From Geminicoccaceae bacterium (lineage in GTDB: Bacteria > Pseudomonadota > Alphaproteobacteria > Geminicoccales > Geminicoccaceae): DNA of 64,000 nt. A model generated the notes under the pieces. It ran no database searches. It worked only from the letters and a program-made list of their open reading frames with translations, and had not been told where the DNA came from. Below are positions 8,781 through 45,907 of the stretch, in pieces. Made by a program: the position numbers and the translations under genes. The stretch lies in contig JBDHTW010000014.1 of assembly GCA_039808865.1 (NCBI GenBank), forward strand, positions 12-64,011. Reading direction: 5' to 3'. The first letter of the stretch is position 1, and each line of letters starts with the position of its first letter.

Positions 8781-8798
8781 CACAAGGTGGACTTGCAG

Positions 8799-9410: not shown

Positions 9411-9419
9411 GCGATACCG

Positions 9420-10244: not shown

Positions 10245-10266
10245 TGAACCGACAGGAGAGGCAAGG

Positions 10267-11100: not shown

Positions 11101-11140
11101 GCCGTCGCGCGACGATCCGACCTACGCAAGAGGGCCCAGC

Positions 11141-12639: not shown

Positions 12640-12651
12640 GGCGGACGCCGG

Positions 12652-13410: not shown

Positions 13411-13574
13411 GTTTGTCCTCCCCTTGGTCTTGGTCCAACATGCACCGCCCCCGCCAATCGCGGAAGTGCGGCTCGCCACGACCGGTGCTCCGTGCTAACG
13501 CGCGCCGCAGGTCCCATGGCCTGGGCTCGGCCACGTCCGGTCGGCCCGCGCCGAACCGGAGGGACATTGCATCG

Positions 13575-27103: not shown

Positions 27104-28462
27104 TCAGCGCCCGACCTTGAGCCGCGTGCGTTTACCGTCGACCAGGGTGTGCGCTGGTCCGAGTGGCGTGAGCGTGTGCACGCCGTCCGGGTAGGGACCG
27201 GCAGGATCGGGCTCGATTCGCGCCACGGGAATCTCCTCGAACCGCTCGGGCGTCAGCACGTCGATGCGCAACAGGACCACGGCACCACCGTAGCGCTCGG
27301 AGCAGTCCTGGGCCGGACGGTAGAGCCGCCCGTCGTGCACGAAGGGCGGCCCGGCCGGGCGCGCGCTGCGGACGTCGCAGCGCACCGGATTGCCGGCGTG
27401 CGGCTGCCACGGCCCGAGGAGCCGATCGGCGTGGAACAGGAACAGCTTGGTCACGTCCTGATCGGCGTGATCCATGGCCAGCATCCACCACCGCCCGTCA
27501 TGGCGGAAGGGCGTGCAGTCGACACCGGCGAACCCGTCGAGCAGCACGGCCGCCGGCTCGAAGCGCTCGGGGAGGCGTACCGCACGCAGCAGGGTCACCC
27601 GGCCGGACGCCGAGTTCTCCGGCACGCAGTAGAGCACGCCCTCGTCCTCGACGAGGCACGGGTACGAGAGGTGCCCGGCGAGGCCGGTCGTCACCGGCAG
27701 CGGCTCCGGCGATTCCGGGCGAAGCGCCACGATCTCGCCACGACCGAGGCGCGGATCGAAGGCCTCGGCCAGGATGACCGGGCCGGTGGCGTCGACGAGG
27801 CCGAACGGATCGGCCAGGAAGCCGCCGCCGCTACGCTCGGGCAGCCACGCGACATCGTCGAGCGCCGGTCGGGTCAGAAAGCTGGCGATCGGCCGCGGCG
27901 CGATGCCGACCGCCCAGATCTCCTCGGTCAGCGCCTCCCGCACGCGCCCGACCGCGTTGCGCGCGACCTGCAGCGGCAGGGTCAGCCAGTCGGCGGCGGC
28001 GCTGGCATGCGGCTGCCCGAGGGCTGGCCCCGCCGTCGTGGCGCGATCCCGACCGAGCACGCGGGCGGGCCAGTCGGCACAGGTTTCGAGGATCCGCCGC
28101 AAGGTCAGGTACGGCGACAGCCCGCTGGACTTCACGGCCCCGGTCCGGAGCCGTCGCGCCGCGCCGTCGCTCGGCATGACGGCGAGCAGCGACACGGCGA
28201 CCGATCGGCCGGCCGCCGCGATCGCGGGCAGGCTCAGGGTGCGTGGTCCGGCCGGCGCATCGACCGCCAGGACGAGCAGCGGCAGCTCATGCCGGCGGGC
28301 CAGATCCGTCGCCACCCGGTTCGGGAGCAGGCTGACGACCGCCTCGGCCCGGGCCTCGTCCGCGGCGGCAAGCCGCAGCCCGAATCTCGCCAGGGCCGCC
28401 TCGGTGCGCCGGTCGAGATCGGCACGCCCGGTCGGGACGAGATGGACACTGCGCCTAGGCAT
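27104..28462 (-). CDS. GINT1-N-terminal-like beta-propeller protein (glycoside-hydrolase-like fold), function unknown
   Basis: FLADPF, HLSYP, GPWQPHAGNPV..D..SARPAG, RPAQDCS..YG motifs; TGATG coupling to the upstream glycosyltransferase. Confidence 0.7.
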   Translation of the reverse strand: MPRRSVHLVPTGRADLDRRTEAALARFGLRLAAADEARAEAVVSLLPNRVATDLARRHELPLLVLAVDAPAGPRTLSLPAIAAAGRSVAVSLLAVMPSDGAARRLRTGAVKSSGLSPYLTLRRILETCADWPARVLGRDRATTAGPALGQPHASAAADWLTLPLQVARNAVGRVREALTEEIWAVGIAPRPIASFLTRPALDDVAWLPERSGGGFLADPFGLVDATGPVILAEAFDPRLGRGEIVALRPESPEPLPVTTGLAGHLSYPCLVEDEGVLYCVPENSASGRVTLLRAVRLPERFEPAAVLLDGFAGVDCTPFRHDGRWWMLAMDHADQDVTKLFLFHADRLLGPWQPHAGNPVRCDVRSARPAGPPFVHDGRLYRPAQDCSERYGGAVVLLRIDVLTPERFEEIPVARIEPDPAGPYPDGVHTLTPLGPAHTLVDGKRTRLKVGR

Positions 28463-29754
28463 CACGATCCCGCCGCCAGGGAACCGTAAACGGCACACAA
28501 CCGGTCGGCCGCCCGTTGCCACGTCCAGTGCGCCACCGCGTCCTTGCGGCCGGCCGCACCCATAGCGCGAGCGCGCTCGGGGTCGGCCAGCAGCGTGAGC
28601 AGGGCGTCCGCCAGCGCCAGCGGGTCGCCCGGCTCGACGAGCAGCCCCGTTCGTCCGTCGGCCACCAGTTCGGGGATACCGCCGGCCCGGCTGGCCACCA
28701 CCGGCCGGCCCGCGGCCATGGCCTCCACCACCGGCAGGCCGAACGGCTCCTGGATCACCGACGGCGTCACGGCCACGGCGCTGCGGCCATAGATCAGCGG
28801 CATGCGCTCGAAAGGCTCGGCCGCCAGGAATCGCGTCGCCGCACGGGCCGCGGGCGAGAGCCGCCGCTCGATGGTCCGACGGTAGCTGCTGCGGCTCGAG
28901 ATCACCTGCCGGGACAGGCCGACGAGTGGATTCCGGCCGTAGAGGTCGCGCAGGCCCTCCAGGAGCGGGCCGCGGCCGAATTGGGGCAGAATCGAGGCCG
29001 GCAGGTAGCCCGGGCGGCCGACGATCTCGAGCGTGGCCTCGGGCCGGACCGCGACGACGCGGCTGAAGGCTTGGGCCAGGACGTGGACGCCCTTCTCGGG
29101 TGAGACCCGGCCCACGAAGAGGAGCCGGGCCGATGCGCCGCCGGCATCGGCGTCGGGGGCCGCGAACGCATCGGAATCGACACCGTTGCCGATCATGTGG
29201 AACTTGGCGGCATGGCTCGGCAGATGGGCGCGCAGACGCTGCGCCAGATGCTCGGAGCAGGTGACGACGACGTCCACGGCATCCAGCGCCCGCGCGGCCG
29301 CCTCGGGCGCGAAGCCGAACGGATGCGGGTGGTGCAGGTGCAGGACCAGCGGCACGTCGGGCAGGGCTGCGCGCAACCTCGGCGCGTGCTGCAGGTAGGT
29401 CTGCAGGTGCAAGAGGTCGGGCGGTTCGCGCCCGAGCAGCTCGGCCACGCGCGCGAAGTAGCCGCGATAGTAGCCCGGCGCCACGGAGCGCGCCGACAGG
29501 CCGGGCCAGAGGCCGGAAAGCAGCTCGAGCGCCTGCTCGTTGCGATCGCCCTCGACCGGGACCTGCACGACCGGATGCCCGCCGGGTCCGGCAGCGGCTG
29601 CCGTCTCGCCGTGGTCGGAGCCGACATAGAACGTGAGCGCGTAGCCGGGTGGCAGGCACTTGGCGAGCTCGGAGGCGACGATGCCGGTGGAACCGCTCAA
29701 CAGACCGCTCGCGAGCAGCCGGTCACGCGGCTGGCACACCATGGCTATGCGCAT
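28462..29754 (-). CDS. GT4 family glycosyltransferase
   Basis: IGNGVD, LFVGRVSPEKG, PSVIQEPFGLPVVEAMAAG, GGIPE. Confidence 0.92.
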   Translation of the reverse strand: MRIAMVCQPRDRLLASGLLSGSTGIVASELAKCLPPGYALTFYVGSDHGETAAAAGPGGHPVVQVPVEGDRNEQALELLSGLWPGLSARSVAPGYYRGYFARVAELLGREPPDLLHLQTYLQHAPRLRAALPDVPLVLHLHHPHPFGFAPEAAARALDAVDVVVTCSEHLAQRLRAHLPSHAAKFHMIGNGVDSDAFAAPDADAGGASARLLFVGRVSPEKGVHVLAQAFSRVVAVRPEATLEIVGRPGYLPASILPQFGRGPLLEGLRDLYGRNPLVGLSRQVISSRSSYRRTIERRLSPAARAATRFLAAEPFERMPLIYGRSAVAVTPSVIQEPFGLPVVEAMAAGRPVVASRAGGIPELVADGRTGLLVEPGDPLALADALLTLLADPERARAMGAAGRKDAVAHWTWQRAADRLCAVYGSLAAGS

Positions 29755-29939
29755 CGCGCCTCCACGCCCGGGATCGAGAAGGGGCTGCATTTGCGTCGGC
29801 GGCTGTGCTCGCCGGACGCGCCCGAAGGCTGGGTTTGGCGGGCGGCACGGTGTAGACGGCCGGCATACCGTCGTCCATGTGCACCTGCGTCACGGACGGT
29901 CCGTCGATGCGGCGCTTGCTGCGGGAGAGGAAACTCGAG

Positions 29940-31190
29940 GTGAGAATAGGTTGGGTCTATCCGCATTCCCGTTTCCCGAGCGCCGACTTCAAGCTGTTCG
30001 ATGCCCTGGCCGTCGTGACCTACGAGCTGACGCGGCGCCTGGCCCGCACGAACGACGTCACGGTCTATGCCCGGCGCGGCGAGGGCGACCTGCCGCGGGA
30101 GACCCGCGAGCGGGTGGAGTTCCGCCGCTTCTCGCAGACGCTCGACCAGCTCTTGTGGTCGCTCAACATCGTCGACCGCCTGGGCCTCACCTCGCCGTCG
30201 CGGCCTCTGCGGATGAGCAGCCTCTACTATCGCATCTTCGCCGAGCGCGTCGCCCGCGACGCCGCCAAGCGGCGCCTGGACGTGATCCACATCTATGGCA
30301 CGACGAACTTCATCCCGGTCGTTCGCCGGCACAATCCCGACGCCGTGATCGTGCTGCACAGCCATGATCACGCGCTGGTCGATTTCGATCCCGACCTGAC
30401 GGCCACGCGCCTCGCCCAGGCATCCTTGATCCTCGGCTGCAGCGAGACCGTGACCCGCACGATGCAGGTCAGATTTCCGGCCCTCGCGGCACGCTGCCAC
30501 GCCTTGCCGAACGGCGTCGACGAGCGGTTCTTCACGGTCGCGAGCGATCCGGCAGCCAGCAGCACGGTCATGTTCGTCGGCCGCCTGGCACCCGAGAAAG
30601 GCGTGCACCTGCTGCTCGAGGCCTTCGCCCGGGTGGCCGCCGACCGGCCCGAGGCCCGCCTCGAGCTGATCGGTCCGCGCGATCTTTCGCCCAAGCAGTT
30701 CGTCGATCCGTTCGGGCGCGACCCGCTCATCGCTTCGGTCAGCGCCTATTACAAGGATCCCGACAGCTTCCGGGCACTTCTGGACGCGACGGCGCGCCGC
30801 TCCGGGCCACAAGCCACCTTCCGCGGGCCGATCGCCAACGACGCCCTCCACGGCGAGCTCGCCCGGGCAGGTGTGTTCGTGTTCGCCTCGCTGTGGGAGG
30901 AGCCGTTCGGCATACCGGTGATCGAGGCCATGGCGGCGGGGCTGCCGGTCATCGTTGCCCGGTCCGGCGCCCTGCCCGAGATCGTCGAGGACGGGGTGAG
31001 CGGCATCATCGTGCCGCGGGGCGACGTCGCGGCGCTGGCACAGGCGATCGACGGCCTGCTCGCCGACCCGAGCCGGCGGGCGGCGATGGGACAGGCGGCA
31101 CGGGCCAGGGCACGCCGCCATTACCACTGGGACGGATGCGCCGAACGGCTGCTGAAGCTCTACGACAGCGCCAGGAACAGGCCGGCGTGA
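29940..31190 (+). CDS. GT4 family glycosyltransferase
   Basis: LPNGVD, FVGRLAPEKG, SLWEEPFGIPVIEAMAAG; start taken as GTG 29940 (ATG 29907 possible). Confidence 0.92.
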   Translation: MRIGWVYPHSRFPSADFKLFDALAVVTYELTRRLARTNDVTVYARRGEGDLPRETRERVEFRRFSQTLDQLLWSLNIVDRLGLTSPSRPLRMSSLYYRIFAERVARDAAKRRLDVIHIYGTTNFIPVVRRHNPDAVIVLHSHDHALVDFDPDLTATRLAQASLILGCSETVTRTMQVRFPALAARCHALPNGVDERFFTVASDPAASSTVMFVGRLAPEKGVHLLLEAFARVAADRPEARLELIGPRDLSPKQFVDPFGRDPLIASVSAYYKDPDSFRALLDATARRSGPQATFRGPIANDALHGELARAGVFVFASLWEEPFGIPVIEAMAAGLPVIVARSGALPEIVEDGVSGIIVPRGDVAALAQAIDGLLADPSRRAAMGQAARARARRHYHWDGCAERLLKLYDSARNRPA

Positions 31191-31224
31191 GCCGCCGGCT
31201 GGCGAGGTCACGACCGGCCGAGGC

Positions 31225-32409
31225 TCAGGCCAGAGCCTCGACTTCCGGCTCCAGGCCCAGTCGCCGCAGCTCGGCACCGATCTCGCCGACATAGATGGCG
31301 TTCATCACCAGCACGACGTCGGGCCGCAGCGCCACCAGGGCTTCGGGTCCGACGATCTCGTGGCCGGTGCCGGCCAGAAACTTGCCGTGCTTGTGCGGGT
31401 TGATGTCGACCACGGCGGCGATCTCGTCGCGCAGGCCCAAGGTGGTGAGGTAGCTCACCGCCTTCGAGCCCGAGCCCCAGATCGCCACCTTCCTGCCCGC
31501 GCTCGACCAGCCGGTCGCCTGCTCGCGCAGCTTGGCGAGACGGGTCCGGATGTCGACCTCGAACGCCGCCACCAGCTCGGTGATGCCGGCCAGATCGTCC
31601 TCGGCCGGCAGCGTCGGCTCGGTGGGACCGGCCACGGGCCGGGCTTCGATCATGAGGTACTGGTCGTCGTAGGCCTTCCACAGATCGGTGACGTCGAAAC
31701 CGGTCCGTCGGAACAGCCGCGCCAGGGAGCCCAGCGTGAAATAGGAGCAGTGCTCGTAGTAGATGTCCCAGAAGGCGCCCTCGCGCAGCACGCGCTCCAT
31801 GTCGGGCAGCTCGAAGAACACCGGCACTTCCGGCCGATCGCCGATCGCCGACCGGACCAGCCGCATGAACTCGAGCACCTCGTGGATGTGCTCGAGCGTG
31901 TGCCGGCAGCAGACGTAGTCGGCCGCGAGGTGCTGATACTTGGGACCGTAGAAGTCCTGCACGAAGTTGAGCCGCGCCGCCGCCGGGCTGTTGGTGCGCT
32001 CCGGCCGGTAGCCCGGATCGATGCCGATGCCGGCACAGCCCGTACGTTCGCACAAGGCGACCAGAAACTCGCCCTTGCCGCAGCCGATCTCGAGCGCGGT
32101 CTTGCCGGCGAGAGAGTATTTGCGGTCCTGGTCGTCGCAAATCTCGGCGACGAAGCGTTGGAAGCGCGGCGAGAAGATCTGGGTCTCCTCGTAGTCGATC
32201 GAGTAGCGATGGGCCGTCGGGTCGAACAGCACGTTCTGCACGAAGCCGCAGTCGGTGCAGAAGCCCAGCTCCAGGTTCTGGCGTGGAAAGGCCAGCGCGG
32301 CTTCGCGGCTGTCCAGCATCAGGCAGCTGTGAACGGGAATGTCGTCCACGCGATAAAAGGCATGGATGTTGCCGCCGCCACAGGCGGCACAGGTCGTCCG
32401 TGAGTTCAT
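31225..32409 (-). CDS. NDP-sugar C-methyltransferase-like protein (Zn-finger + SAM domain), paralogue 2
   Basis: CAACG...CTDC Zn motif, LEIGCGKG, HTLEH, IYYEH, WGSGSK, VDINP.KHG. Confidence 0.8.
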   Translation of the reverse strand: MNSRTTCAACGGGNIHAFYRVDDIPVHSCLMLDSREAALAFPRQNLELGFCTDCGFVQNVLFDPTAHRYSIDYEETQIFSPRFQRFVAEICDDQDRKYSLAGKTALEIGCGKGEFLVALCERTGCAGIGIDPGYRPERTNSPAAARLNFVQDFYGPKYQHLAADYVCCRHTLEHIHEVLEFMRLVRSAIGDRPEVPVFFELPDMERVLREGAFWDIYYEHCSYFTLGSLARLFRRTGFDVTDLWKAYDDQYLMIEARPVAGPTEPTLPAEDDLAGITELVAAFEVDIRTRLAKLREQATGWSSAGRKVAIWGSGSKAVSYLTTLGLRDEIAAVVDINPHKHGKFLAGTGHEIVGPEALVALRPDVVLVMNAIYVGEIGAELRRLGLEPEVEALA

Positions 32410-32415
32410 GAGCTT

Positions 32416-33654
32416 CTAGAGCACCGTGGGCTCGGGAATGGGAATGATGAACCGACCGCCGCGGCTAGCGTAAATCGCCTGCTGGCCGATGATCTCCTCC
32501 TGGAAGTTCCAGGGCAGGATCAGCACGTAATCCGGCTGCCGCTCGAGCAGGGCTTCGGGGGGCAGGATCGGCAGGCGCACGCCCGGGATCCATTTGCCCT
32601 GCTTGTGCCGATTGCGGTCGACGACGAATTCCAGCGTCTCGGGACCGATACCGACATAGTTGAGCAGGATGGTCCCTTTGGCAGCCGCGCCGTAGCCGGC
32701 GAGGCTGCCGCCCTTGGCCTTGATCTCGCCCAGCAGCGCCTGCAATCGGTCCCGGATGGCCTCCACCCGGCGGGCGAAGCCCGCATAGTAGGCGAAGCCG
32801 TCCATGCCGAGCTCGTGCTCCTCGCGCAGCAGCGCGTCGACCGAAGGCTCACGCCGGGGCTGCCGCTCGACGAACACGCGCAGCGAGCCGCCGTGGATGT
32901 CGATCCGCTCGACCCGGTTCAAGAACAGCCCGTGCCGGCTGAACAGGCGGTCGAGCGCCATCACCGAAAAATAGCACAAGTGCTCGTGATAGATCGTGTC
33001 GAACTGGCCTTTGTCGATCAGGTCACGCACATAGTGCATCTCGAGGACGGCGAGACCGTCGTCCTTGAGCAGGGTCGCGATGCCCTGCACGAAGCCGTTG
33101 GTGTCCGCCACGTGCGCCAGCACGTTGTTGGCGTGGAGCACGTCCGCACGGCGGCCGCCGGCGGCAAGATCGTCGGCCAGTTCGCGCCCGAAGAAGGCCT
33201 GCAGACTCTCGACGCCCTTGGCCCGCGCCGCGGCGACGGGACCGGGGGTCGGATCGATGCCCAGCACCCGGATGCCGGCGGCGAGGTAATGCTGCAGCAG
33301 GTAGCCGTCGTTGCTCGCGAGCTCGATCACGAGACTGTCCGGGCCGAGGCCACGCTCCTCGATCCTGGCGGCGACGTTGCGCGCCGAATGCTGCACGAGC
33401 GCGTCGATCACCGACGAGAAGTAAGGATAGTCGGCGGCGAACAGCTCCTCGGGTGGCACGGTGTGCAGGATCTGCACCAGCGTACAGTCGTGGCAGAACG
33501 CCACGTCGAGCGGGTAGCGGGCCTCGGCGCGGTCGAGCGCGTCCGCGGCGATGAACGCGTCCGAGGGCGGCAGATCCCCGAGTGCGAGGAAGGTCTCGAG
33601 TCGATGGGAACCACAAGCGCGACAGGTCTCGATCGGCGCCACGCTGGACGTCAT
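32416..33654 (-). CDS. NDP-hexose C3-methyltransferase (TcaB9/KijD1 family), paralogue 1
   Basis: CRACG...CHDC, ELASNDG, NNVLAH, TIYHEH, YGAAAKG, VDRN..KQG. Confidence 0.88.
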
Positions 33655-34691
33655 GCGGCCTCGCGCAGATAGCGCAGACTGGCGCCGTCGACACGTCCGG
33701 CCGCCATCAGGTTCTTCAGATGCTGCACCCGCATCCAGCTCGGGCCGAAGAACTGCTCGGCGGTGACCTTGGCCCCACGATAGGCCTCGTAGATCTCCTC
33801 GATGCCGCGGCGCAGCGTCCACTGCGGCTCGTAGCTCGGGACCATGCGCCGGATCTTGTCGCAGTTCACGCGGTAGTTGCGGCGATCCGGGCTGGCGTCG
33901 CTGGCGAACGACACCGTGGCGCCCGGCACGATCTCGGCCACCATCTCGGCGACCTCGCGCACCCGGTAGTTCTCCGTGGTGGCACCGACGTTGAAGGCCT
34001 CGTCGTGCACCTGCTCGCGCGGCGCCTCGAGCACCGCCAGATAGGCGCGGGCGATGTCCTCGATGTGCACCAGCGGCCGCCACGGCATGCCGTCGCTCTT
34101 CATCGTCACGCTGCCGGTGGTGAAGGCATAGCCGACGAGATTGTTCACGACGAGGTCGGCACGGAGCTTGGCGGAGATGCCATAGGCCGTGCCGGCCCGC
34201 AGATAGACCGGCGTGAAGGTCGCATCGGCGAGCGGGCTGATGTCACGCTCGGCCAGGACCTTGCTCTCGGCGTAGGGGGTCACCGGGTTGAACGCGGCCG
34301 TCTCGTCGACGAAGCCGTCGGTCGAGGCGCCGTAGTTGCTGCAGGACGAGGCGAACACGAACCGGCGCACGCCGGCGGCCTTGGCCAGCCTGGCCAAGCG
34401 GGCCGCGGCCTGGTGGTTGACCTCGTCGGTCATGGCCGGGTTGAGATCGCCGAACGGATCGTTGGAGACCCCGGCCAGATGCAGGACGGCATCGAGGCCC
34501 GCGAGCATCGCAGGCGTCACGTCGCGCACGTCCTGCCAGTGCATCGGCACCACCGGTCGCGGCTGGCCGGGAAAGATGCACTCCGCAAACAGGCCGCTGT
34601 CGAGACCGGTCACCTCGTGACCAGCCTTCTGCAGCAGCGGAACGAGGACTTGGCCGATATAGCCGTCACTGCCGGTCACGAGCACACGCAT
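33651..34691 (-). CDS. NAD-dependent sugar epimerase/oxidoreductase (extended SDR)
   Basis: [28 protein letters not shown]. Confidence 0.88.
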
Positions 34692-34695
34692 CGGC

Positions 34696-35469
34696 TCAGC
34701 TCCAAATCTTCCACGGCGCTTCGCCGCTTTCCCACAGCTCGTCCAGCCGCGCCTTGTCGCGGACCGTGTCCATGCACTGCCAGAAGCCATAGTGCCGGTA
34801 GGCCATGAGCTGACCGTCGGCGGCCAGCCGCTCCAGCGGCTCGCGTTCGAAGGGGGTCAGGTCGTCGTCGATGTAGTCGAAGACGCCGGGTTCGAGCACG
34901 AAGAAGGCGCCGTTGATCCAGCCCTCGCCGGTCTGCGGCTTCTCGGTGAAGCTCGCGACCTTGTCGTCCTCGAGATCGAGACGCCCGAAGCGCGCCGGCG
35001 GCCTGACCGCCGTGACCGTGGCGAGCTTGCCGTGGGCGCGATGGAACGCCAGCAGCGCATGCAGGTCGACCGTCGAGACCCCGTCGCCCCAGGTCAGCAT
35101 GAAGGTGCTCTCGCCGAGATAGGGTCGCAGACGCTTGATGCGCCCGCCGGTCATCGAGCGCTGCCCGGTATCGACGAGATCGACCTTCCAGGACTGCTGC
35201 AGACCCGCCGCATGCGCGTCGACGGCACCGGAAGCGAAGTCGACCGTAAGATCACGATTCAAAAACCAGAAATCCATCATGTATTTTTTGATGTACTCGC
35301 CCTTGTAACCCAGAGCGATGGCAAACTCGTTGAAACCATAATGACTATAATGCATCATGATATGCCAAAGAATTGGCCGGCCACCGATCTCCACCATGGG
35401 TTTTGGTCTGACGGCGGTTTCCTCGGCCAAGCGAGAGCCGACACCACCGGCAAGTATACCGACCTTCAT
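34696..35469 (-). CDS. rfbF: Glucose-1-phosphate cytidylyltransferase
   Basis: [52 protein letters not shown]. Confidence 0.93.
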
Positions 35470-35914
35470 GAAACCTCCGATTCGACCTGCGGCGGGTAAA
35501 ATACTCATCGCATGGTCGCTACGGTCGATCAGGACTTACTGCGAAAGACACCCCGGCGCACCTGGATGGGGTGTAGATGTCTGCTGTCCAACGTCGCAAC
35601 CGCAACATATTGACGCGGCTCGGCCGACTATCATTTCCGCCTTGGACGCCAACGCTTGACGCGCATTAGCAATGATACAAGATGGTCCATCCGGCCCTGT
35701 CAATAGCCTTTACCGCAACTGCGTTGTCTGGTCGGGTGCGGTTGCTCCGGCAACACATCGGGCGCTCGGGCACCTTGCGGGTGCAATGACGATCACCCGA
35801 TGGCAAGGCTGTGGTTGTCGAAACGACACGGGCCTGCGAGTATGGAGCGGCGGTGCCGCCCTAGAAGGCCGCTCGCAGCCTCAGGACCTGCCGACGTCGC
35901 ATGATGCCATACCG

Positions 35915-37372
35915 ATGAGCCTCGCCAGATCGCTGACCTCGAGCATGGTCGTGCTGGCCGGCGGGCGCGTGCTGAGCATCCTGCTCGCCTTGGTCACCGT
36001 CGCGATGCTGACACGGGCGCTGGGCCCCGAGGATTTCGGCTATTTCCGCACCGCGATCGCCTATCTGAGCCTCGCCATGCTGATCGGCGGCTTCGGCCTC
36101 AACACGGTGGTGGTGCGCGAATTGGCGCGGGCCGAAGCCGACCAGCCGCGAATCCTGGGGAACGCGCTCGCCCTGCGGCTGACCCTGTCGGCAACGGCCA
36201 TCACCGTCGGCTGCCTGCTCGCCTGGCTGCTGCCGTTCGATCTCGATGCCCGCGCGTGCATTCTCGCCGGCAGCTTCGGCTTCGCCTGCTACGCCGCGCA
36301 CATGATGCTCGCGGGCTTCTTCCAGCAGCGGCTGAGACAGACCGGATCGGTGCTGGCCGAGATCACCGGTGCCGCGCTGCTGCTCGCCGCCGTCGCCTGG
36401 CTGCGGCGCAATGGTGCGCCGGTGGTCGACTTCGTGCTCGCCCAGGCGGTCGCGTACGTGGCGATGCTGGCCGTGTCCTGGGTGGCGGCCTGGCGGTTGA
36501 CGCCGTTCCGGCTCCGTGCCGAGCCGCCCGTCTGGCGCCGGCTGTTCGGGCGAGCGCTGCCGCTGGCAGGGGTCGATTGGCTCAATCTGGTCTATTCCCG
36601 CTCGGACACGCTGCTGCTGGCGCTCTGGGGCACGGCGGCGAGCGTCGGCCTCTACGGCGTCGCGGCCAAGATTTACGACACGTTCCTCGGCATCTCGATG
36701 CTGTTCGTCGGCATGGTCGGCCCGATCCTGGGCCGTCGTGCCCATGTCGATCCCGAGGGCTTCCGCAGCTTTCTTGCCACCGGCTGGACGCTCCTGATGG
36801 CGGGCGTGGTCGGAATCGGGCTGATGCTGTGGTCGTTCGCCCCCGAATTCATGTCGATCATCGCCGGCAGCGAATTCGTGGCCGGCGCCGCCGCGCTGCG
36901 CGTGTTCAGCCTGCTCATCGTCGTCGGACCGTCGCGGGTGCTGTTTCGCGACGTGACGACCATGCTCGATCTGCAACATCGGCTGCTGCCCGGATCGATC
37001 ATCGGCGCCGTGGTCGGCCTCGCCGCCTACGCCGTGCTCATTCCGAGGTTCGGCGCGGTCGGTGCGGGTTGCGCGCTGTTGCTGGCCGAGCTGACCGTGT
37101 GCATCCAGGCGGCTCTGGTGCTGATCGGCGCCGGGGCCACGCGCCTGGCCTTCCGGGCACCTCTGCTCGCGATCGGCTGCGGCCTGCTCGCCGCTTGGGC
37201 GATCGAGCTGCTGCGCGGGTTCGGCCTGCCCTGGCCCCTGCTCGCCGTTCTCGGTGGCCTGGGCTACCTCGCGCTGCTGGTGCTCACTGGCGTGCTGCAG
37301 CCTCGTGCATGGCTGCAGCTGGTCGTCGAGCGCCCGGCTGCCGCAGGCTTGGCCGGTGGGCCGCAGCCATGA
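35915..37372 (+). CDS. wzx: Polysaccharide flippase (Wzx/MATE-like)
   Basis: Many TM segments; RALGPEDFGY, DTLLL...VGLYGVA, LIPRFGAVGA motifs. Confidence 0.88.
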   Translation: MSLARSLTSSMVVLAGGRVLSILLALVTVAMLTRALGPEDFGYFRTAIAYLSLAMLIGGFGLNTVVVRELARAEADQPRILGNALALRLTLSATAITVGCLLAWLLPFDLDARACILAGSFGFACYAAHMMLAGFFQQRLRQTGSVLAEITGAALLLAAVAWLRRNGAPVVDFVLAQAVAYVAMLAVSWVAAWRLTPFRLRAEPPVWRRLFGRALPLAGVDWLNLVYSRSDTLLLALWGTAASVGLYGVAAKIYDTFLGISMLFVGMVGPILGRRAHVDPEGFRSFLATGWTLLMAGVVGIGLMLWSFAPEFMSIIAGSEFVAGAAALRVFSLLIVVGPSRVLFRDVTTMLDLQHRLLPGSIIGAVVGLAAYAVLIPRFGAVGAGCALLLAELTVCIQAALVLIGAGATRLAFRAPLLAIGCGLLAAWAIELLRGFGLPWPLLAVLGGLGYLALLVLTGVLQPRAWLQLVVERPAAAGLAGGPQP

Positions 37373-37460
37373 ATCGCGTCATCCACCAAGCTGTGCCCGA
37401 CTTGCCACGGCACGCCGGTGTAACGACGCCCGCGATCGTGACGGAAGGGTGAAGGACGCC

Positions 37461-38501
37461 ATGGCGACGGCTGACGTCTTCGGGGACTGCGCGCCGATCT
37501 TCGTCGTCGGTGCGGCACGCTCCGGGACCACGTTGATGCACCGGATGCTGCATGCCCATCCGGACATCGCGTTGATGGACGAGGCCGCATTCTTCGAGGG
37601 CATCTTGAAGGTACGGCCGGTGCTGCCGGACCTGCGCGCTCCCGGAGCGGTCGAGCGCTTCTTCGAGCTTCTGCCACGTATCCAGCACATCCAGCACTGG
37701 AGCGGGATGGACGAGGTCCTGGCCGACGTCCGCATCAGGCTGGCAGCCGATCCCGCGCCGAGCTACGGCCGCTTCTACTTCCTGCTGATGGACGCGTTGG
37801 CCCGGCAGAGCGGCGCCCGGCGCTGCGGCGACAAGACACCGGAGAACATCCGCTATCTGCCCGAGCTGGCGGCCATGTTCCCGCGCTGCCAGATCATCCA
37901 CATGGTGCGCGATCCGCGCGGCAACATCGCCTCGCGCTTGCGGCTCGACTGGGCGTCCAACGATATCCTGAGCAACGCCGTGAAGTGGAAGCTTGACGTC
38001 CGCGCCGGCCGCCGCTTCGGCCGGACGGCCCCGGCCGGCCGCTATCTCGAGGTCAAGTACGAAGAGCTGGTCGGTGCGCCGGAGGCGACGCTGCAGCGCG
38101 TGTGCACATTCCTCGGCGAGGCTTACCGGCCGGAGATGCTGCAGTTCTACGAGTCGAAATCGGTGCTGTTCAAGAACGAGCCGTGGAAGGACACGACCTT
38201 CGCGCCGGTGACGACGAACTATATCGAGACGTGGCGCAAGTCCTTGAGTCCGGCACAGCTCTTCTTGATCGAGCGTGTCGTCGGCAACGAGCTGCGCGAG
38301 TTCGGCTATGCCCTGTCGCCGTGGCGCGCCGTGGACGTCCCGGCTGCGGCCCCACAATTGGTTCGCGAGCTGGCGAGCTGGGTCGGTCACAAGCGGCGTG
38401 AGCGACGGCTGCGACGCGAGCAGCCCGAAGTTGAATTCTTCGTCGGCAATTCGTTGACGGCCAAGGTGCTGCAGCAGGTGCGTGGCCGGACGCCTTACTG
38501 A
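37461..38501 (+). CDS. PAPS-dependent sulfotransferase (Sulfotransfer_3-like)
   Basis: 5'-PSB motif GAARSGTT, GDKTP, 3'-PB motif MVRDPR, VKYEELV. Confidence 0.9.
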   Translation: MATADVFGDCAPIFVVGAARSGTTLMHRMLHAHPDIALMDEAAFFEGILKVRPVLPDLRAPGAVERFFELLPRIQHIQHWSGMDEVLADVRIRLAADPAPSYGRFYFLLMDALARQSGARRCGDKTPENIRYLPELAAMFPRCQIIHMVRDPRGNIASRLRLDWASNDILSNAVKWKLDVRAGRRFGRTAPAGRYLEVKYEELVGAPEATLQRVCTFLGEAYRPEMLQFYESKSVLFKNEPWKDTTFAPVTTNYIETWRKSLSPAQLFLIERVVGNELREFGYALSPWRAVDVPAAAPQLVRELASWVGHKRRERRLRREQPEVEFFVGNSLTAKVLQQVRGRTPY

Positions 38502-38727
38502 GCTGCGGCTGAACGCGCCCTTGATCGACGCGCGGTATCGATGCACGACCGTACTGGGTTCAGCTCTTGATAACAAGTCGGCGACGATCGGTCAGGCGAA
38601 GCTGTTTGCTACTCGGTTGCATCTTTTTCGCGCGGAGCAACCCGTGGTAAGGGCTTTGCCAATTGGTCGGGCCGTGCGCGCATGGCCAAAGCTGGCGACC
38701 CCGCCAAGCCATTGAGGAGCGTGAGCA

Positions 38728-39672
38728 TTGCCCCGTGTGAGCATCGGCATCCCGGTCTTCAACGGCGAGAATTTTCTGGAGGACGCGATCCGCTCGGTTC
38801 TGGCGCAGAGCTACCAGGACCTGGAGCTGGTGATCGCGGACAACGCGTCGACGGACCGGACGGCGGAGATCGGGCGGGACTTTGCCGCCAGCGACGGTCG
38901 GGTCCGCTACCTGCGCAACGAGCGCAACCTGGGCGCGGCGCCGAACTACAACCTGGTCTGGGAGCAGAGCCGCGGCAGCCTGTTCAAGTGGCTGTCGCAC
39001 GACGACCGGATTTTGCCGGAGTTCGTGGCGCAGACGGTGGCGGCGCTGGACGCCGAGCCGGACGCGGTGCTGGCCAACGGCCTGGTCGAGTACATCGACG
39101 CCCAGGGCAAGGTCTTCGCGCACTATCCGAGTGTCCTCGGCGCGGCCGGTGGCCCGTCGCCGGCGCAGCGCTTCGCCGCCATGGTGCTGCGCTCGCATTC
39201 GTGCGTGGACTTCTTCGGCATGGTGCGGCGCGAGGCCATGCAGGGCTCGCTGCTGCATGCGAGCTTCCACGGCGCCGACCGGGCGTTCCTGGCGCAGATG
39301 GCGCTGCGTGGCCGGCTGCTGCAGCTGCAGCAGCCCCTGGTGCAGATGCGCGAGCACCAGAGCCGCTACACCCGCAGCAAGGTCGACGCCCGGACCCGGC
39401 AGCTCTGGCACGACAGCAGCGCCAAGCGGGCACCTCGACTGCCGACGCTGCATCTGTACCGTCAGTACCTGCACATGGTGCAGCAGGAGCAGCTGAGCCC
39501 GGCGGAACGGCGGCGCTGTATGCAGGTGCTGGCGCGCTGGTGGTTCAACAACTGGAACGCGGTCCGGGTCGGCACCGACGCACTGGGTCTGGTGCTGCCG
39601 GGAATCGTCGGCCATGCCGAACGCGTGAAGACCCGCGTGTTCGGATTGGCCCCGGGACACTTCGTCCGCTGA
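38728..39672 (+). CDS. GT2 family glycosyltransferase
   Basis: VSIGIPVFNGE, DNASTD, NLGAAPN, WLSHDD (DxD-like); TTG start after GAGGAG. Confidence 0.92.
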   Translation: MPRVSIGIPVFNGENFLEDAIRSVLAQSYQDLELVIADNASTDRTAEIGRDFAASDGRVRYLRNERNLGAAPNYNLVWEQSRGSLFKWLSHDDRILPEFVAQTVAALDAEPDAVLANGLVEYIDAQGKVFAHYPSVLGAAGGPSPAQRFAAMVLRSHSCVDFFGMVRREAMQGSLLHASFHGADRAFLAQMALRGRLLQLQQPLVQMREHQSRYTRSKVDARTRQLWHDSSAKRAPRLPTLHLYRQYLHMVQQEQLSPAERRRCMQVLARWWFNNWNAVRVGTDALGLVLPGIVGHAERVKTRVFGLAPGHFVR

Positions 39673-39728: not shown

Positions 39729-40226
39729 CTACGCGCGCTCTGCGTCCGCCGGCGCGGCGAGCCTGTCTTCACCACGGCCGAGCTTGTCGGGCAGCGGCTG
39801 CTGCAGCGGGACGAACTCCAGCGCCACGGAGTTGATGCAGTAGCGATGCCCGGTCGGTGGCGGGCCGTCGGGGAAGACGTGACCCTGGTGGCTGCCACAG
39901 CGTGCGCACAAGGTCTCGATGCGGATCATCCCGTAGCTGGTATCGCGCTTCAGCTGCACATGGCCTTCGGCATAGGGTGCATTGAAACTCGGCCAGCCCG
40001 TGCCGCTCTCGAACTTGGTCGTGGCGGCGAACAGGGGCAGGCCGCAGAGCTTGCAACAGTAGGTCCCCGCCTGCTTGTTGCCCAGCAGCGTGCCGCAGAA
40101 CGGGGCTTCGGTGCCATGGCTCAAGAGCACACGACGCTCCTCGGCGCTGAGCGCCGCCTCGAGAGTCCGGCGCTGCTGCGGTGAGGGCGGGGTGAGATCG
40201 AAGCCGGCGGTGACGGCGTCTGACAT
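39729..40226 (-). CDS. msrB: Peptide-methionine (R)-S-oxide reductase
   Basis: GTEAPF, CKLCG and CARCG Zn pairs, GWPSF, GHVFPDGP, RYCINS. Confidence 0.95.
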   Translation of the reverse strand: MSDAVTAGFDLTPPSPQQRRTLEAALSAEERRVLLSHGTEAPFCGTLLGNKQAGTYCCKLCGLPLFAATTKFESGTGWPSFNAPYAEGHVQLKRDTSYGMIRIETLCARCGSHQGHVFPDGPPPTGHRYCINSVALEFVPLQQPLPDKLGRGEDRLAAPADAERA

Positions 40227-40244
40227 GGGGAACGTCCTTCTGGG

Positions 40245-40865
40245 CTAGCTTGCGCGGCGGGCGGCAGCATCCTTCAGCCGGTCGCCGTGCACTTGGCGCA
40301 GCTTCTTGACCTTGGGTTCGGCGACGGCACGGATGTAGGGCTGTTCGGGATTCCGCGCCGCATAGCCGTGATGATAAGCCTCAGCCTCGTAGAAGGCGGT
40401 CAGCGGCTCGAGCGTCGTCTGCACCTTGGCGTCGAAGATGCCGGCCCGATCGATCTGCCGGATATAGGCCGCCGCCACGTCGCGCTGCCCCTCGTCGGCA
40501 TAGAAGATCGCCGAGCGGTACTGGCGGCCGACATCATGGCCCTGGCGATCCTTCTGGGTCGGATCGTGCGCGATCGAGAAGAACATCTTCAGGATTTGGC
40601 CCATGCTGATCCGGGCCGGATCATAGGTGATCTCGATCGCCTCCGCATGGTCGGTGCGACCACCGCACACCGTGCGATAGTCGGCGGTCTCGGCGGTGCC
40701 GCCGGCATAACCCGGACGCACGGCGAGCACACCGTCGAGCTGCGCATAGACGGCCTCGGTGCACCAGAAGCAGCCGCCGGCGAGAACCAGCTTCGCCGGC
40801 GCCGGCCCGGCCGGCAGATCCTGCTCGGGATCGGGAAACGACCAGGGATCGATCTTCAGCGCCAT
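40245..40865 (-). CDS. msrA: Peptide-methionine (S)-S-oxide reductase
   Basis: GGCFWCTE, GYAGG, DHAEAI, HDPTQ.DRQG.DVG.QYRSAIF, AEAYH. Confidence 0.95.
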   Translation of the reverse strand: MALKIDPWSFPDPEQDLPAGPAPAKLVLAGGCFWCTEAVYAQLDGVLAVRPGYAGGTAETADYRTVCGGRTDHAEAIEITYDPARISMGQILKMFFSIAHDPTQKDRQGHDVGRQYRSAIFYADEGQRDVAAAYIRQIDRAGIFDAKVQTTLEPLTAFYEAEAYHHGYAARNPEQPYIRAVAEPKVKKLRQVHGDRLKDAAARRAS

Positions 40866-41040
40866 GGCTTCCTCCGTACAACCGGCTGGGCATGCAGATG
40901 GCGATGCGGCACCGCGTTTTGCAGTGGCGGCCATGCCGGCGCAATCTCCCATGCGCGTGAGGACGATGGCGGATGCGCTTATCAAGACCGCCATCGGCAG
41001 CTAAAGGCATCCAACAAGCTGCCGCAAGGACGAGGGAAGC

Positions 41041-42030
41041 ATGCGCTCGATCAGGATCGTGTCGGCTGCGGCGGCGCTGACGCTGGCGTGCCTGCTGCCA
41101 CAGCCGGGCTTCGCCGACGACAGCTCCGTGCCCGAGCAGATCGTCGACACCATGAACCAGCTCTGGGGCCGGCATCCCGGCATCCGCGCCAACCATGCCA
41201 AGGGGATCGTGGTCGAAGGCAGCTTCGTCCCCAGCGCCGAAGGTGCGAAGCTGAGCACGGCCATCGTGTTCAAGAGCGGAACGATCCCCGTGATCGCCCG
41301 GTTTTCGGACGCGACGGGCCTGCCCACGATCGCGGACGGCAGCGCCAACGCCAACCCGCACGGGTTCGCCGTCCGCTTCCAGCTGCCGGACGGCGGCGAG
41401 ATGGATGTCGTCACCAACTCGCTGGCATTCTTTCCGGTGGCCACCGGCGAGGAGTTCCGCGATCTGCTGCAGGCGGTGGCGATGACCGGACCGGATGCCG
41501 CCAAGCCCACGCCGGTCGAGCGCTTCATGGCGGCACACCCGGCCGCGCCGCAGGCCTTCGCCAGCGTGGCCACGCCCACGAGTTTCGCGCGCGAGATCTA
41601 CAACGGCGTCAACGCCTTCGTGTTCGTCGACGCTGCGGAGAAGCGGCAGCCGTTCCGCTTCCAGCTGGTTCCGGTCGAAGGCGCGGAACATCTGAGCGCC
41701 GCCGAAGCGGCCAAGCGGGGTCCGGATTTTCTGACCGAAGAGCTGCGCGCGCGCCTGGCCAAGCAGCCGGTGGCGTTCCGCCTGCTCGCCCAGCTCGCCG
41801 AGCCCGGCGATCCGATCGACGACGCGACCAAGCCCTGGCCGGCCGAGCGCCGCGAGGTCGATCTCGGCACGATCACCCTGACCAAGCCGGTGGCCGACAA
41901 CGCGGCGGCCGAGAAGGAGCTGCTGTTCCTGCCCAGCAACCTCACCGACGGCATCGAACCCTCGGACGACCCGTTGATCGACACCCGCGTCCAAGCCTAT
42001 GCGGTGTCGTTCGACCGACGCTCGCAGTGA
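41041..42030 (+). CDS. Catalase-related peroxidase (SrpA-like), exported
   Basis: Signal peptide; RANHAKG (distal His), ARFS, TNS (distal Asn), proximal R..AY..S..RR. Confidence 0.88.
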   Translation: MRSIRIVSAAAALTLACLLPQPGFADDSSVPEQIVDTMNQLWGRHPGIRANHAKGIVVEGSFVPSAEGAKLSTAIVFKSGTIPVIARFSDATGLPTIADGSANANPHGFAVRFQLPDGGEMDVVTNSLAFFPVATGEEFRDLLQAVAMTGPDAAKPTPVERFMAAHPAAPQAFASVATPTSFAREIYNGVNAFVFVDAAEKRQPFRFQLVPVEGAEHLSAAEAAKRGPDFLTEELRARLAKQPVAFRLLAQLAEPGDPIDDATKPWPAERREVDLGTITLTKPVADNAAAEKELLFLPSNLTDGIEPSDDPLIDTRVQAYAVSFDRRSQ

Positions 42031-42048
42031 GCCTCCGCGCCGGGCGCG

Positions 42049-42471
42049 TCAGCCCGGCGGCGCTTCCCTCCACCCGAGTTGCGCCATGATCTCGGCGGCA
42101 GGCTCGGCCAGGTACGAGGGAATCGGCTCGAGCTCGATCCGGCCGCCATCGGCGCGGATATGGAGCAGCAGGTCGATGTCGGCGGGGCGATCGCGCGTCT
42201 TGCTCGCAGGATGCTCCCGGTCGCGGCCGAGCGCGAGTTCGATCGCGATGCAGTCTGCCTTGCAGGCCGCCGGCTCGAGCCCCGTCGGGACGAACGCGCA
42301 GAAATTGACGAACGGCCGCTGGCTTTCCATGCCGACCGGCTCGGTCACATGGAAACGGCTGAGCAGGATCTCGCCGAAGCGTTGCCGCAGATGCTCGACG
42401 ATCCGTCGCGCGTTGCGCTGCGGATCGAGATTGCTGCCGATGCCGAGGACATAGCCCGGAGCGAGGTGCAT
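42049..42471 (-). CDS. folK: FolK/HPPK-like pterin pyrophosphokinase (short, divergent C-terminus)
   Basis: LGIGSNL, S.F..TEPVG, FVN, IELALGRDR, RPADIDLL (two Mg-binding Asp). Confidence 0.78.
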   Translation of the reverse strand: MHLAPGYVLGIGSNLDPQRNARRIVEHLRQRFGEILLSRFHVTEPVGMESQRPFVNFCAFVPTGLEPAACKADCIAIELALGRDREHPASKTRDRPADIDLLLHIRADGGRIELEPIPSYLAEPAAEIMAQLGWREAPPG

Positions 42472-42491
42472 CGCGGATCGGCTCCGGCCGC

Positions 42492-43001
42492 TCAGCGCAC
42501 TTCGAGCGCGGTCAACTGCCAGATCGACTTGAAGTTCTGCGAATCGGCCTGGAACTCGGGATACTGATCACTCGGCAGGATGACCCATAGCGGCCCGCGG
42601 TCCCGAAGCCGCAACGGTTTGCCATCCTGCTCGAGCGCGATCAGGATCGGGTAGCGCCGCATTTCGTCGACATCGAGCTCGATCTGATAGCCGTTGGCGG
42701 CGATCGCGCGCAGCTTTTGACCGGTGGCGCCCACGGCGTCGAGCACCTTGCTCATGACGATGCCCCGGAACGTGGGCTTGCCGTCGGTGTAGGGCGTCGA
42801 GGTGGTGAGATCGCTCAACCCGAGCGCCTCGAACATCGCGCGATCGAACTCGGCCTTGCCGGGCGCGTTCGTGTTGGCGATCGCGCCACTGACCGTGAGC
42901 AGCACCGGTCCGGTGGGCGTCGCCAGCGCCTGGGCCCGGGCGTCGTGCCCCAGGACCGTGCAAGCGGCGAGAAACATCAGCGCGAAAAGGCGTGCCATCA
43001 T
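42492..43001 (-). CDS. PruR-like periplasmic pterin-binding protein (Moco-less sulfite-oxidase fold)
   Basis: Signal peptide ending ARA; LLTVSG.I, FDRAM.EAL, T.TPY, AANGY, RDRGPLW, SIWQL..LEV; no Cys in the mature protein. Confidence 0.78.
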   Translation of the reverse strand: MMARLFALMFLAACTVLGHDARAQALATPTGPVLLTVSGAIANTNAPGKAEFDRAMFEALGLSDLTTSTPYTDGKPTFRGIVMSKVLDAVGATGQKLRAIAANGYQIELDVDEMRRYPILIALEQDGKPLRLRDRGPLWVILPSDQYPEFQADSQNFKSIWQLTALEVR

Positions 43002-43058
43002 CCCCACAGTCCCTTTAGAGGGTTGTTGATCAAAGACATCCCTCGCCAGCACCGGCAT

Positions 43059-45644: not shown

Positions 45645-45907
45645 GAATGTCGTGGCTTCGCCCGCGGCACGAAAGTCGCTGCGCGCCCAGGCCTCCCGAG
45701 GGCCAGGTTGCCAGCATCCTGGCCGCATCCGCGCAATCTACTACAGATTGCGGCGTTTCCTTCTTCGACAGAGCCGATCCGAGTAAACCGTAGAGGTGAT
45801 GGGAATCAAGCTGTTTCTATCATGTGTACATCTTCGCGCACGGCGATCCGGGTGCTTTCTCCACGCGCCGCGTCCGGCCACCATCCCGTCATTCCGGAGC
45901 TGTTCCG

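Follow-up and report, generated by a model that had tools for sequence, protein, structure and literature searches.

To our knowledge, every known route to C-methyl-branched sugars, whether for polysaccharides or for antibiotics, begins with a 4,6-dehydratase and hence ends in 6-deoxy products, and plain C4 dehydrogenation has been demonstrated only for the guanosine diphosphate (GDP)-linked heptoses of Campylobacter. Here, we describe a four-gene cassette, rfbF-SDR-CMT1-CMT2, at positions 31225-35469 of a 64-kb stretch of DNA from a Geminicoccaceae bacterium (contig JBDHTW010000014.1 of GenBank assembly GCA_039808865.1; this whole stretch is hereafter termed the window). The cassette, which encodes a glucose-1-phosphate cytidylyltransferase (RfbF), an extended short-chain dehydrogenase/reductase (SDR), and two methyltransferase-type paralogues (CMT1 and CMT2), appears to reach a 4-keto intermediate by plain C4 dehydrogenation. 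Its product is probably an undescribed methyl-branched, 6-hydroxyl sugar derived from cytidine diphosphate (CDP)-glucose; the fuller proposal, that the four genes make a CDP-activated, C-methyl-branched hexose which keeps its C6 hydroxyl and is destined for a Wzx-dependent surface polysaccharide, has in our judgment an even chance of being correct.

The first system to be compared is that of Campylobacter jejuni HS:2, in which Cj1427 acts as a ping-pong GDP-heptose C4-dehydrogenase, holding its NADH so tightly that turnover needs the conversion of alpha-ketoglutarate to L-2-hydroxyglutarate, and passes the free 4-keto sugar to a C3/C5-epimerase (Cj1430) and then to a separate reductase (Cj1428) (PMC10680097). 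The cassette would resemble this pathway in that C4 is oxidized by a dedicated extended SDR without 6-deoxygenation, and in that separate enzymes then modify the 4-keto intermediate (free, and modified at C3 and C5, in the Campylobacter case); moreover, the closest relationship of its SDR, in sequence as in fold, is with Cj1427. The two differ in that a GDP-heptose, an epimerase, and a Cj1428-type reductase are employed in Campylobacter, whereas the cassette would employ a CDP-hexose and C-methyltransferases and contains no Cj1428-type reductase.

The classical operons for CDP-3-C-methyl-6-deoxyhexoses likewise start with rfbF, use a TylC3-type C3-methyltransferase on a 4-keto intermediate, and serve a surface glycan, but they encode a 4,6-dehydratase, one methyltransferase, and a separate 4-reductase, and their products are 6-deoxy sugars; the cassette, in contrast, lacks both a dehydratase and a separate reductase and has two methyltransferase paralogues, to which about half of its relatives add a third. 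SMb21416-21418 of Sinorhizobium meliloti, a ddhA-ddhB-CMT cluster, is of the classical kind. The cereose/cillose operon of Bacillus cereus reportedly consists of a cytidylyltransferase, a 4,6-dehydratase, one C-methyltransferase, and a 4-reductase; a preliminary description of the present DNA, made from the letters alone, had listed one C-methyltransferase, a dehydratase, and a reductase for these sugars, in agreement with the pathway reported in a 2017 paper in the Journal of Biological Chemistry. Where that operon has a 4,6-dehydratase and a stand-alone 4-reductase, the cassette has a single non-dehydratase SDR and, as its fourth gene, a second methyltransferase paralogue.

Among the enzymes of antibiotic biosynthesis, TcaB9, KijD1, and MtmC (PDB 3ndi, 5t64, and 4rv9) share with CMT1 and CMT2 the three-domain architecture, the zinc-binding Cys4 site, the S-adenosylmethionine (SAM) motif, and the His/Tyr/Glu/His residues, but their substrates are deoxythymidine diphosphate (dTDP)-linked 2,6-dideoxy or 3-amino sugars. 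NovU, from the noviose pathway, is a TylC3-family C5-methyltransferase that acts on a 4-keto nucleoside diphosphate (NDP)-hexose and, by this function, would offer a precedent for the role proposed for CMT2; its substrate differs in being a dTDP-6-deoxy sugar. The CDP-vinelose of Azotobacter vinelandii (CDP-6-deoxy-3-C-methyl-2-O-methyl-L-talose) is similarly CDP-linked and carries two methionine-derived methyl groups, but it is a 6-deoxy sugar, for which a dehydratase is needed, and one of its methyls is on oxygen. The genes for CDP-vinelose are uncharacterized as far as we know, and Azotobacter contributed no locus to the best 80 matches of either genome scan described below. By analogy, the cassette works like a hybrid of the Cj1427 logic of Campylobacter and the C-methylation chemistry of antibiotic deoxysugars.

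All four genes lie on the minus strand. The first of the operon, rfbF (also ddhA; 34696-35469, 257 aa), has its ATG at 35469, preceded at a spacing of 4 nt by a GGAGG ribosome-binding site; its stop is separated by a 4-nt spacer from the ATG of the SDR gene (33651-34691, 346 aa), whose stop codon in turn carries the ATG of CMT1 (32416-33654, 412 aa) in an ATGA overlap, and 6 nt lie between CMT1 and CMT2 (31225-32409, 394 aa). These junctions show translational coupling, and the four genes indeed form the one tight unit that the preliminary description had recognized. Genes were called by third-position G+C content (GC3) and compared with those annotated on a public metagenome contig of identical sequence (ENA ERZ28619945), with GC3 open reading frame (ORF) calls alone as the annotation for positions 1-23000 of the window; GC3 was 0.87-0.89 for CMT2 and the SDR, and the rfbF and CMT1 frames failed the GC3 filter. 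The closest named relatives of the cassette proteins come from Geminicoccaceae (64-72% identity). RfbF matches PF00483 and, over residues 1-256 of its 257, the NCBIfam equivalog TIGR02623 (371.2 bits; cutoff, 300.25), and its orthologues at related loci are 60-74% identical to it.

On the evidence of its sequence, the SDR (PF01370, E 7e-43) is not a 4,6-dehydratase. Against TIGR02622, the model for CDP-glucose 4,6-dehydratase, it scores 29.7 bits (cutoff, 278.45), aligned over the C-terminal part only. The elimination of water across C5-C6 needs an acid/base pair following the catalytic Thr (T-D-E or T-D-K), and this pair, which stands before x-Y-G in the dehydratases, is absent from the SDR; its motif SSCSNYG...YAESK instead places Cys-Ser at the positions of the dehydratase Asp-Glu or Asp-Lys, with S115, C117, S118, and Y120 invariant in 22 orthologues. 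Also invariant across orthologues are the NAD-type Rossmann motif GSDGYIG, D31 (the end of beta-2), and the SDR catalytic residues S115/S116 and Y140-x3-K144. When a profile of the 22 orthologues was compared with all PDB sequences, 6vo6/6vo8 came out on top (171.1 bits, E 3e-49) and the next entry reached 96.5 bits; 4-epimerases attained at most ~96 bits and dTDP-glucose 4,6-dehydratases no more than 72 bits. According to its Foldseek entry title, 6vo6 is Cj1427. In the profile alignment, the SDR consensus SPRLRFDLVVNN falls opposite SPRMRLDLLVND of Cj1427, and PDKRNY opposite PDKRDY. An AlphaFold2 (AF2) model of the SDR, built with database homologues (predicted local distance difference test score (pLDDT), 91), has the same 6vo6/6vo8 as its top fold match. 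These resemblances make the SDR a candidate Cj1427-like C4-dehydrogenase, presumably for CDP-glucose.

Related loci were gathered in genome scans seeded with the CMT2 family (one genome per species) or with the SDR (best 80 matches per scan), and their genes were counted from tblastn hits; the scans gave 80 CMT2-seeded loci and 75 SDR-seeded loci outside the first set, or 155 in total; the counts are given separately because the sets partly share contigs. In an all-versus-all clustering, three large ORF "families" turned out to be antisense shadow ORFs of high-GC genes and were discarded. No dehydratase-like SDR lies within ~8 kb at 154 of the 155 loci, which come from many phyla; such an SDR, with a TDK motif, occurs at the remaining one (L155), as a protein other than the cassette SDR, and it is one of only ~20 other extended SDRs in ~2 Mb of flanks. 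The absence of RfbG is thus systematic and not an accident of window size. A 4-keto sugar is required by C-methyltransferases as well as by 3,5-epimerases, yet only this one locus offers a dehydratase-like SDR; the SDR of the cassette would therefore be what supplies the 4-ketone. Homology and gene neighbourhoods together make this dehydrogenation, with the 6-hydroxyl kept because a Cj1427-like C4-dehydrogenase replaces the usual 4,6-dehydratase, the best-supported step after RfbF. The preliminary description had offered a 6-hydroxy branched sugar as one option, for which there is now reasonably good support in the Cj1427-like character of the SDR and the near-complete lack of RfbG-type SDRs; it had also reported no 4,6-dehydratase, 3,5-epimerase, or separate 4-reductase in the window, and this holds in that, among all ORFs of 150 aa or more, an SDR-family profile matched the cassette SDR alone and tblastn of the 64 kb found no further gene for an RmlC-like epimerase, L-2-hydroxyglutarate oxidase (LhgO), or a third CMT paralogue, although reductases of unrelated folds would escape these searches.

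The neighbours of the SDR at related loci bear on its function as well. LhgO, a 400-aa FAD enzyme, is found in or beside the cassette at 7 of the 80 CMT2-seeded loci and at one SDR-seeded locus (L094); the three copies that were scanned match the equivalog NF008726 at 559-612 bits (cutoff, 299), and, by tblastn, the remaining ones share 52-69% identity with the copy of Moorena. In Moorena (L042), its gene separates CMT2 from the third paralogue; elsewhere it lies immediately 3' of CMT2 (L053, L058, and L065), after CMT2 (L080), or after the third paralogue (L021), and at L064 it is flanked by a second rfbF and a second SDR gene. Since 8 of 155 loci far exceeds what would be expected for a single-copy housekeeping gene, and since the hosts belong to at least five lineages (Cyanobacteria, Opitutales, Tepidisphaeraceae, Bacteroidales, and Acidimicrobiia), the simplest reading, by analogy with Campylobacter, is a role for LhgO in recycling the L-2-hydroxyglutarate that a Cj1427-type reaction would release. 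The Tepidisphaeraceae locus L064 (1909-9923) has a full cassette and, immediately after it, rfbF2, LhgO, SDR2 (44% identical), and an RmlC-like epimerase gene; a hidden rfbG was considered for the middle position of this second rfbF-X-SDR set and was rejected when X proved to be LhgO, and the double gene set therefore points to two C4-dehydrogenase pathways side by side.

Likewise, the SDR family stands beside RmlC-like 3,5-epimerases at 21 of the 75 SDR-seeded loci, again without a dehydratase, an arrangement that mirrors the Cj1427/Cj1430 pair; these loci also hold a distant nucleotidyltransferase, a DRL/GFO-type oxidoreductase, a PIG-L deacetylase, and a GT2 glycosyltransferase. A second architecture built around this SDR, seen at L138, L150, L147, L115, and L160 (~8000-13500), has in order the SDR, an RmlC-like 3,5-epimerase, a DRL_cat/GFO-type oxidoreductase (436 aa), a nucleotidyltransferase distantly related to RfbF (35-38% identical), a PIG-L deacetylase, and a GT2; it includes no 4,6-dehydratase and resembles a pathway of the Cj1427/Cj1430 style that serves a different sugar. 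On an 816-kb contig of a Euryarchaeota metagenome-assembled genome (MAG) (L144, 5000-11200), an SDR orthologue (54%) occurs with CMT1-like, RmlC-like, and distant nucleotidyltransferase genes, which reflects either cross-domain spread or a binning error. A DUF4910/DUF2172/HTH_47 protein (M28 aminopeptidase-like) adjoins the SDR in a Bradyrhizobium (L113, 9050-10387) and in a member of Acidobacteriaceae (L159, 6486-7844).

The cassette as a whole is widely distributed. The four genes are collinear, in the order rfbF-SDR-CMT1-CMT2, at 57 of the 80 CMT2-seeded loci (all four are present at 61) and at 31 of the 75 SDR-seeded ones, with median gaps of 15-70 nt between adjacent genes and the SDR gene in second place, a median of ~15 nt after rfbF. 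Hosts include Alpha-, Gamma-, and Deltaproteobacteria, Planctomycetota, Cyanobacteria (e.g., Moorena producens 3L), Actinomycetota (e.g., Frankia), Bacteroidota, Fibrobacterota, Chloroflexota, Acidobacteriota, Gemmatimonadota, Nitrospirota, and others. Among the carriers that can be cultivated are Mesorhizobium qingshengii CGMCC 1.12097 (L049), Geminicoccus harenae CPCC 101083 (L006), Psychromarinibacter halotolerans (L054), Frankia sp. AgB1.9 (L040), and Moorena producens 3L (L042), and the complete genome of Stenomitos frigidus ULC029 (CP170648.1) has the cassette as well. The SDR-seeded scan yielded at least 600 matching stretches, and 598 of the 600 listed were confirmed as relatives; protein searches returned at least ~8000 homologues each, with generic names only. 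A search of the literature found no paper that describes the cassette, a CDP-glucose C4-dehydrogenase, or doubly C-methylated sugars. The cassette is a conserved module of many phyla and not a local oddity; that it is also self-contained and horizontally mobile is part of the best explanation, to which we give even odds. The preliminary description had recognized neither this wide conservation nor the SDR as the source of the 4-keto group.

Of the two methyltransferase paralogues, CMT1 is the more readily assigned, as a TylC3/MtmC/TcaB9-type NDP-4-ketohexose 3-C-methyltransferase: PF08421, the class I methyltransferase domain, and PF08484 all score above cutoff, it matches MtmC (4rv9) at 296 bits and KijD1 and TcaB9 at ~275 (range over the three, 270-296), and it is 38-45% identical to the solved C3-methyltransferases. 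CMT2, which is 25% identical to CMT1, is a divergent paralogue (PF13489 and PF08484) and a predicted second nucleotide-sugar methyltransferase. In CMT2, PF08484 remains above cutoff (50.6 bits) and PF08421 falls below it (17.5 bits; cutoff, 31.3); the match to MtmC is 64 bits, identity to TcaB9, KijD1, and MtmC is 20-26%, and the source annotations returned give its family no name. Its AF2 model (pLDDT 89; predicted template modeling score (pTM), 0.88) has MtmC, KijD1, and TcaB9 as its sole full-length fold matches (TM 0.79-0.83), all others being limited to the Rossmann domain. The C-terminal PF08484 domain binds the nucleotide in the solved enzymes. Because CMT2 shares their fold and has kept PF08484, it is most likely a nucleotide-sugar enzyme.

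Each paralogue has four N-terminal cysteines, and the motifs ANNVLAH and IYHEH of CMT1 and RHTLEH and IYYEH of CMT2 align to H183/Y224/E226/H227 of KijD1, which correspond to H181/Y222/E224/H225 of TcaB9. Two points of the preliminary description are thereby confirmed, namely, that both proteins keep the zinc Cys4 site and the catalytic-type histidine motifs, and that the TcaB9 numbering it had given (His181/Tyr222/His225) is right, as the mutant names in the TcaB9 PDB titles agree with it. Among CMT1 orthologues, these residues are His in 56 of 57, Tyr in 57 of 57, Glu in 39 of 57 (Gln in 18), and His in 57 of 57, with the zinc cysteines and the SAM motif E-x-A-S-N-D-G conserved; for CMT2, the corresponding figures are 68, 67, 68, and 68 of 68, with the Cys4 site and EIGCGKG in 67-68. 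Judging by these residues, both methyltransferases look catalytically competent throughout their families. The Gln found in 18 CMT1 orthologues at the position of TcaB9 Glu224, which is Glu in the window, mirrors an engineered E224Q mutant in the PDB. The SDR and CMT2 occur without CMT1 at 5 loci, and CMT1 occurs without CMT2 at 10 of 75; because each is thus found without the other, CMT1 and CMT2 probably each act directly on the SDR product.

At about half of the loci (L010, L015-L018, L021, L023, L024, and others), though not in the window, CMT2 is directly followed by a third paralogue that shares 32-50% identity with the CMT queries; an Acidimicrobiia contig (L070/L117, 11500-15300) carries three copies of this type. 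The Arg-His of the MtmC motif GRHVFAHI recurs in CMT2 and in the third paralogue; at this place CMT1 has Asn-Asn and KijD1 Ala-Asn.

The pathway that we propose would run as follows. RfbF would make CDP-D-glucose, as its equivalog-level match indicates. The SDR would then oxidize C4 to give CDP-4-keto-D-glucose without 6-deoxygenation, a step suggested by its specific homology and by gene neighbourhoods, and its tightly bound NAD(H) may, as in Cj1427, be re-oxidized by alpha-ketoglutarate with release of L-2-hydroxyglutarate. CMT1, with 38-45% identity to known enzymes and an intact active site, would deprotonate C3 beside the ketone and transfer a methyl group to it from SAM. CMT2 may add a second methyl, most plausibly at C5, because C3 and C5 are the sole enolizable carbons of a 4-keto hexose and CMT1 is the clear C3-methyltransferase orthologue. 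More speculatively, the 4-ketone could finally be reduced, either by the SDR in its NADH-loaded state or by a methyltransferase paralogue acting like MtmC, or it could be kept as a non-enolizable 4-ulose; that no reduction takes place is possible because a 3,5-dimethylated 4-ulose cannot enolize.

The doubly C-methylated sugar of the preliminary description is, on these grounds, plausible. Its boldest version remains tentative, and we are inclined to doubt it: a CDP-3,5-di-C-methyl-hexose or 4-ulose with a 6-hydroxyl would be made in more than 12 phyla and at least one archaeal MAG, with an alpha-ketoglutarate/L-2-hydroxyglutarate shuttle at work and extra paralogues adding methyls in about half of the carriers. 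We know of no natural 3,5-di-C-methyl hexose, and such a doubly branched sugar with a 6-hydroxyl has, as far as we know, not been described in nature.

Several observations also weigh against the proposed pathway. The SDR is just 25-29% identical to Cj1427, whose substrate is a GDP-heptose, and by fold alone Cj1427 is barely set apart from the 4-epimerases. The window contains no LhgO by tblastn, and 147 of the 155 related loci have none nearby. Of 37 sequences of the third paralogue, 36 have Ile, Leu, or Val in place of the catalytic Tyr (KijD1 Y224), with His, Glu, and His kept; furthermore, loci with three to five paralogues (L070/L117) imply that they do not all C-methylate one and the same hexose, which would offer two enolizable carbons. 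No conserved stand-alone 4-ketoreductase was found among the related loci. The locus sets are made up of best matches and partly overlap, so the fractions given here are not population estimates, and the activities of the pathway members, like the product, are predicted from sequence.

Some of these observations fit better with an alternative that shares the C4-dehydrogenase route and differs in the part given to CMT2. Here, only one C-methyl would be introduced, and CMT2 would be a 4-ketoreductase, with NADPH in the SAM pocket in the manner of MtmC, or an O-methyltransferase, so that the product would be a CDP-3-C-methyl-hexose, perhaps O-methylated, with its 6-hydroxyl kept; we regard this as possible, albeit the less probable outcome. 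MtmC, the closest solved relative of both CMTs, is a bifunctional 4-ketoreductase and 3-C-methyltransferase that takes NADPH or SAM in one pocket (PMC10269268), and because of this bifunctionality CMT2 could, by analogy, supply the pathway's missing reductase instead of a second methylation. The Arg-His pair that CMT2 and the third paralogue share with MtmC, the lack of a conserved separate reductase, and the loci at which three to five paralogues outnumber the enolizable carbons all favor such a role, and CDP-vinelose, as described above, sets a precedent for one C-methyl next to one O-methyl. The EIGCGKG motif and the four catalytic residues, retained in 67-68 of 68 CMT2 orthologues, nevertheless argue against it, and the mithramycin pathway still reduces its methylated ketosugar with a separate enzyme, MtmTIII (PMC10269268). 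Moreover, CMT2 is not an obligatory reductase, because 10 of the 75 loci hold rfbF, the SDR, and CMT1 without it.

We consider unlikely a classical 6-deoxy pathway, in which an rfbG outside the window would provide the dehydratase, CMT1 would methylate C3, the SDR would be the terminal 4-ketoreductase, and CMT2 would either lack activity or act as an O-methyltransferase, with a sugar of a known type, like cereose, cillose, or vinelose, as the outcome. Many NDP-hexose 4-ketoreductases are PF01370 extended SDRs, rfbF-rfbG-CMT clusters do exist (SMb21416-18 of S. meliloti and the cereose operon of B. cereus), and the 64-kb window is only part of a genome. Nonetheless, rfbF normally adjoins rfbG, yet 154 of the 155 loci have no dehydratase-like SDR within ~8 kb; a C4-dehydrogenase is, specifically, the nearest relative of the SDR family; adjacency to LhgO would make no sense for a reductase; and the SDR gene comes second in the operon, right after rfbF. 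Very improbable, lastly, is that the SDR is an ordinary CDP-glucose 4-epimerase yielding CDP-galactose, with both methyltransferases O-methylating the sugar or the polymer, for although 4-epimerases are its next-best relatives after Cj1427 in structure and in sequence, Cj1427 leads them by 75 bits, CMT1 keeps the whole active site of enzymes that require a 4-keto substrate and is 38-45% identical to them, and LhgO and RmlC-like proteins are among the neighbours.

In the window, the cassette is housed in a polysaccharide island of 12.5 kb (27104-39672), flanked by a chorismate-binding/GATase gene pair and msrB. The G+C content, ~70% over the window, drops to 0.64-0.665 at 32-36 kb compared with 0.69-0.73 on either side, and, because this local drop accompanies a phylum-spanning distribution, horizontal acquisition of the cassette is suggested. 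Upstream of rfbF, an intergenic region (35470-35944) presumed, from a reading of its sequence, to hold the promoters of both transcription units separates the cassette from a divergent plus-strand gene for a Wzx-type polysaccharide flippase (35945-37372; PF01943, PF13440). There follow, on the same strand, a sulfotransferase gene (37461-38501; PF13469, PF00685) and a GT2 glycosyltransferase gene (38728-39672; PF00535); the sulfotransferase sits between flippase and GT2, and the polysaccharide of the island may be sulfated. The best NCBIfam matches of the GT2 are TuaG/PglI/EpsE-type, every one under its cutoff, and its assignment as a GtrB/ArnC-type polyprenyl-phosphate transferase was dropped on this account. 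Homologues of it are present at 50 of the 155 related loci, within 300 bp of a cassette gene at 21 of those 50, and it is likely the dedicated transferase for the CDP-sugar of the cassette.

On the other side of the cassette are a plus-strand GT4 glycosyltransferase gene convergent with CMT2 (29877-31190; PF00534, PF13439), a second GT4 gene on the minus strand (28462-29790; PF00534, PF13439), and, at the end of the cluster, a minus-strand gene for a GINT1_N-domain protein that is putatively glycosyltransferase-like (27104-28462, 452 aa; PF24793, E 2e-30), for which the NCBIfam scan gave no match. PF24793 represents the N-terminal domain of GINT1, a glucosamine inositolphosphorylceramide transferase of eukaryotes. 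Beyond the GT2, the island is adjoined by msrB (39729-40226), after which come a short catalase-domain protein (41041-42030, 329 aa), a weak match to a molybdopterin-oxidoreductase domain (42492-43058), and a hybrid histidine kinase with receiver and Hpt domains (43059-45728, 889 aa); the region 39729-45728 looks like an oxidative-stress neighbourhood.

The cassette is more general than the preliminary description supposed, and the hypothesis put forward for it can be tested directly in vitro. Were it to hold, the ping-pong mechanism of Cj1427 would extend to CDP-hexoses, the link to L-2-hydroxyglutarate metabolism would be explained, one new monosaccharide or more would be added to those known, and a function could be given to thousands of genes that at present bear only the labels "NAD-dependent epimerase" or "class I SAM-dependent methyltransferase". 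With cyanobacteria, planctomycetes, actinomycetes, rhizobia, acidobacteria, and Chloroflexota as carriers, the product is probably a common, unrecognized component of environmental bacterial surfaces.

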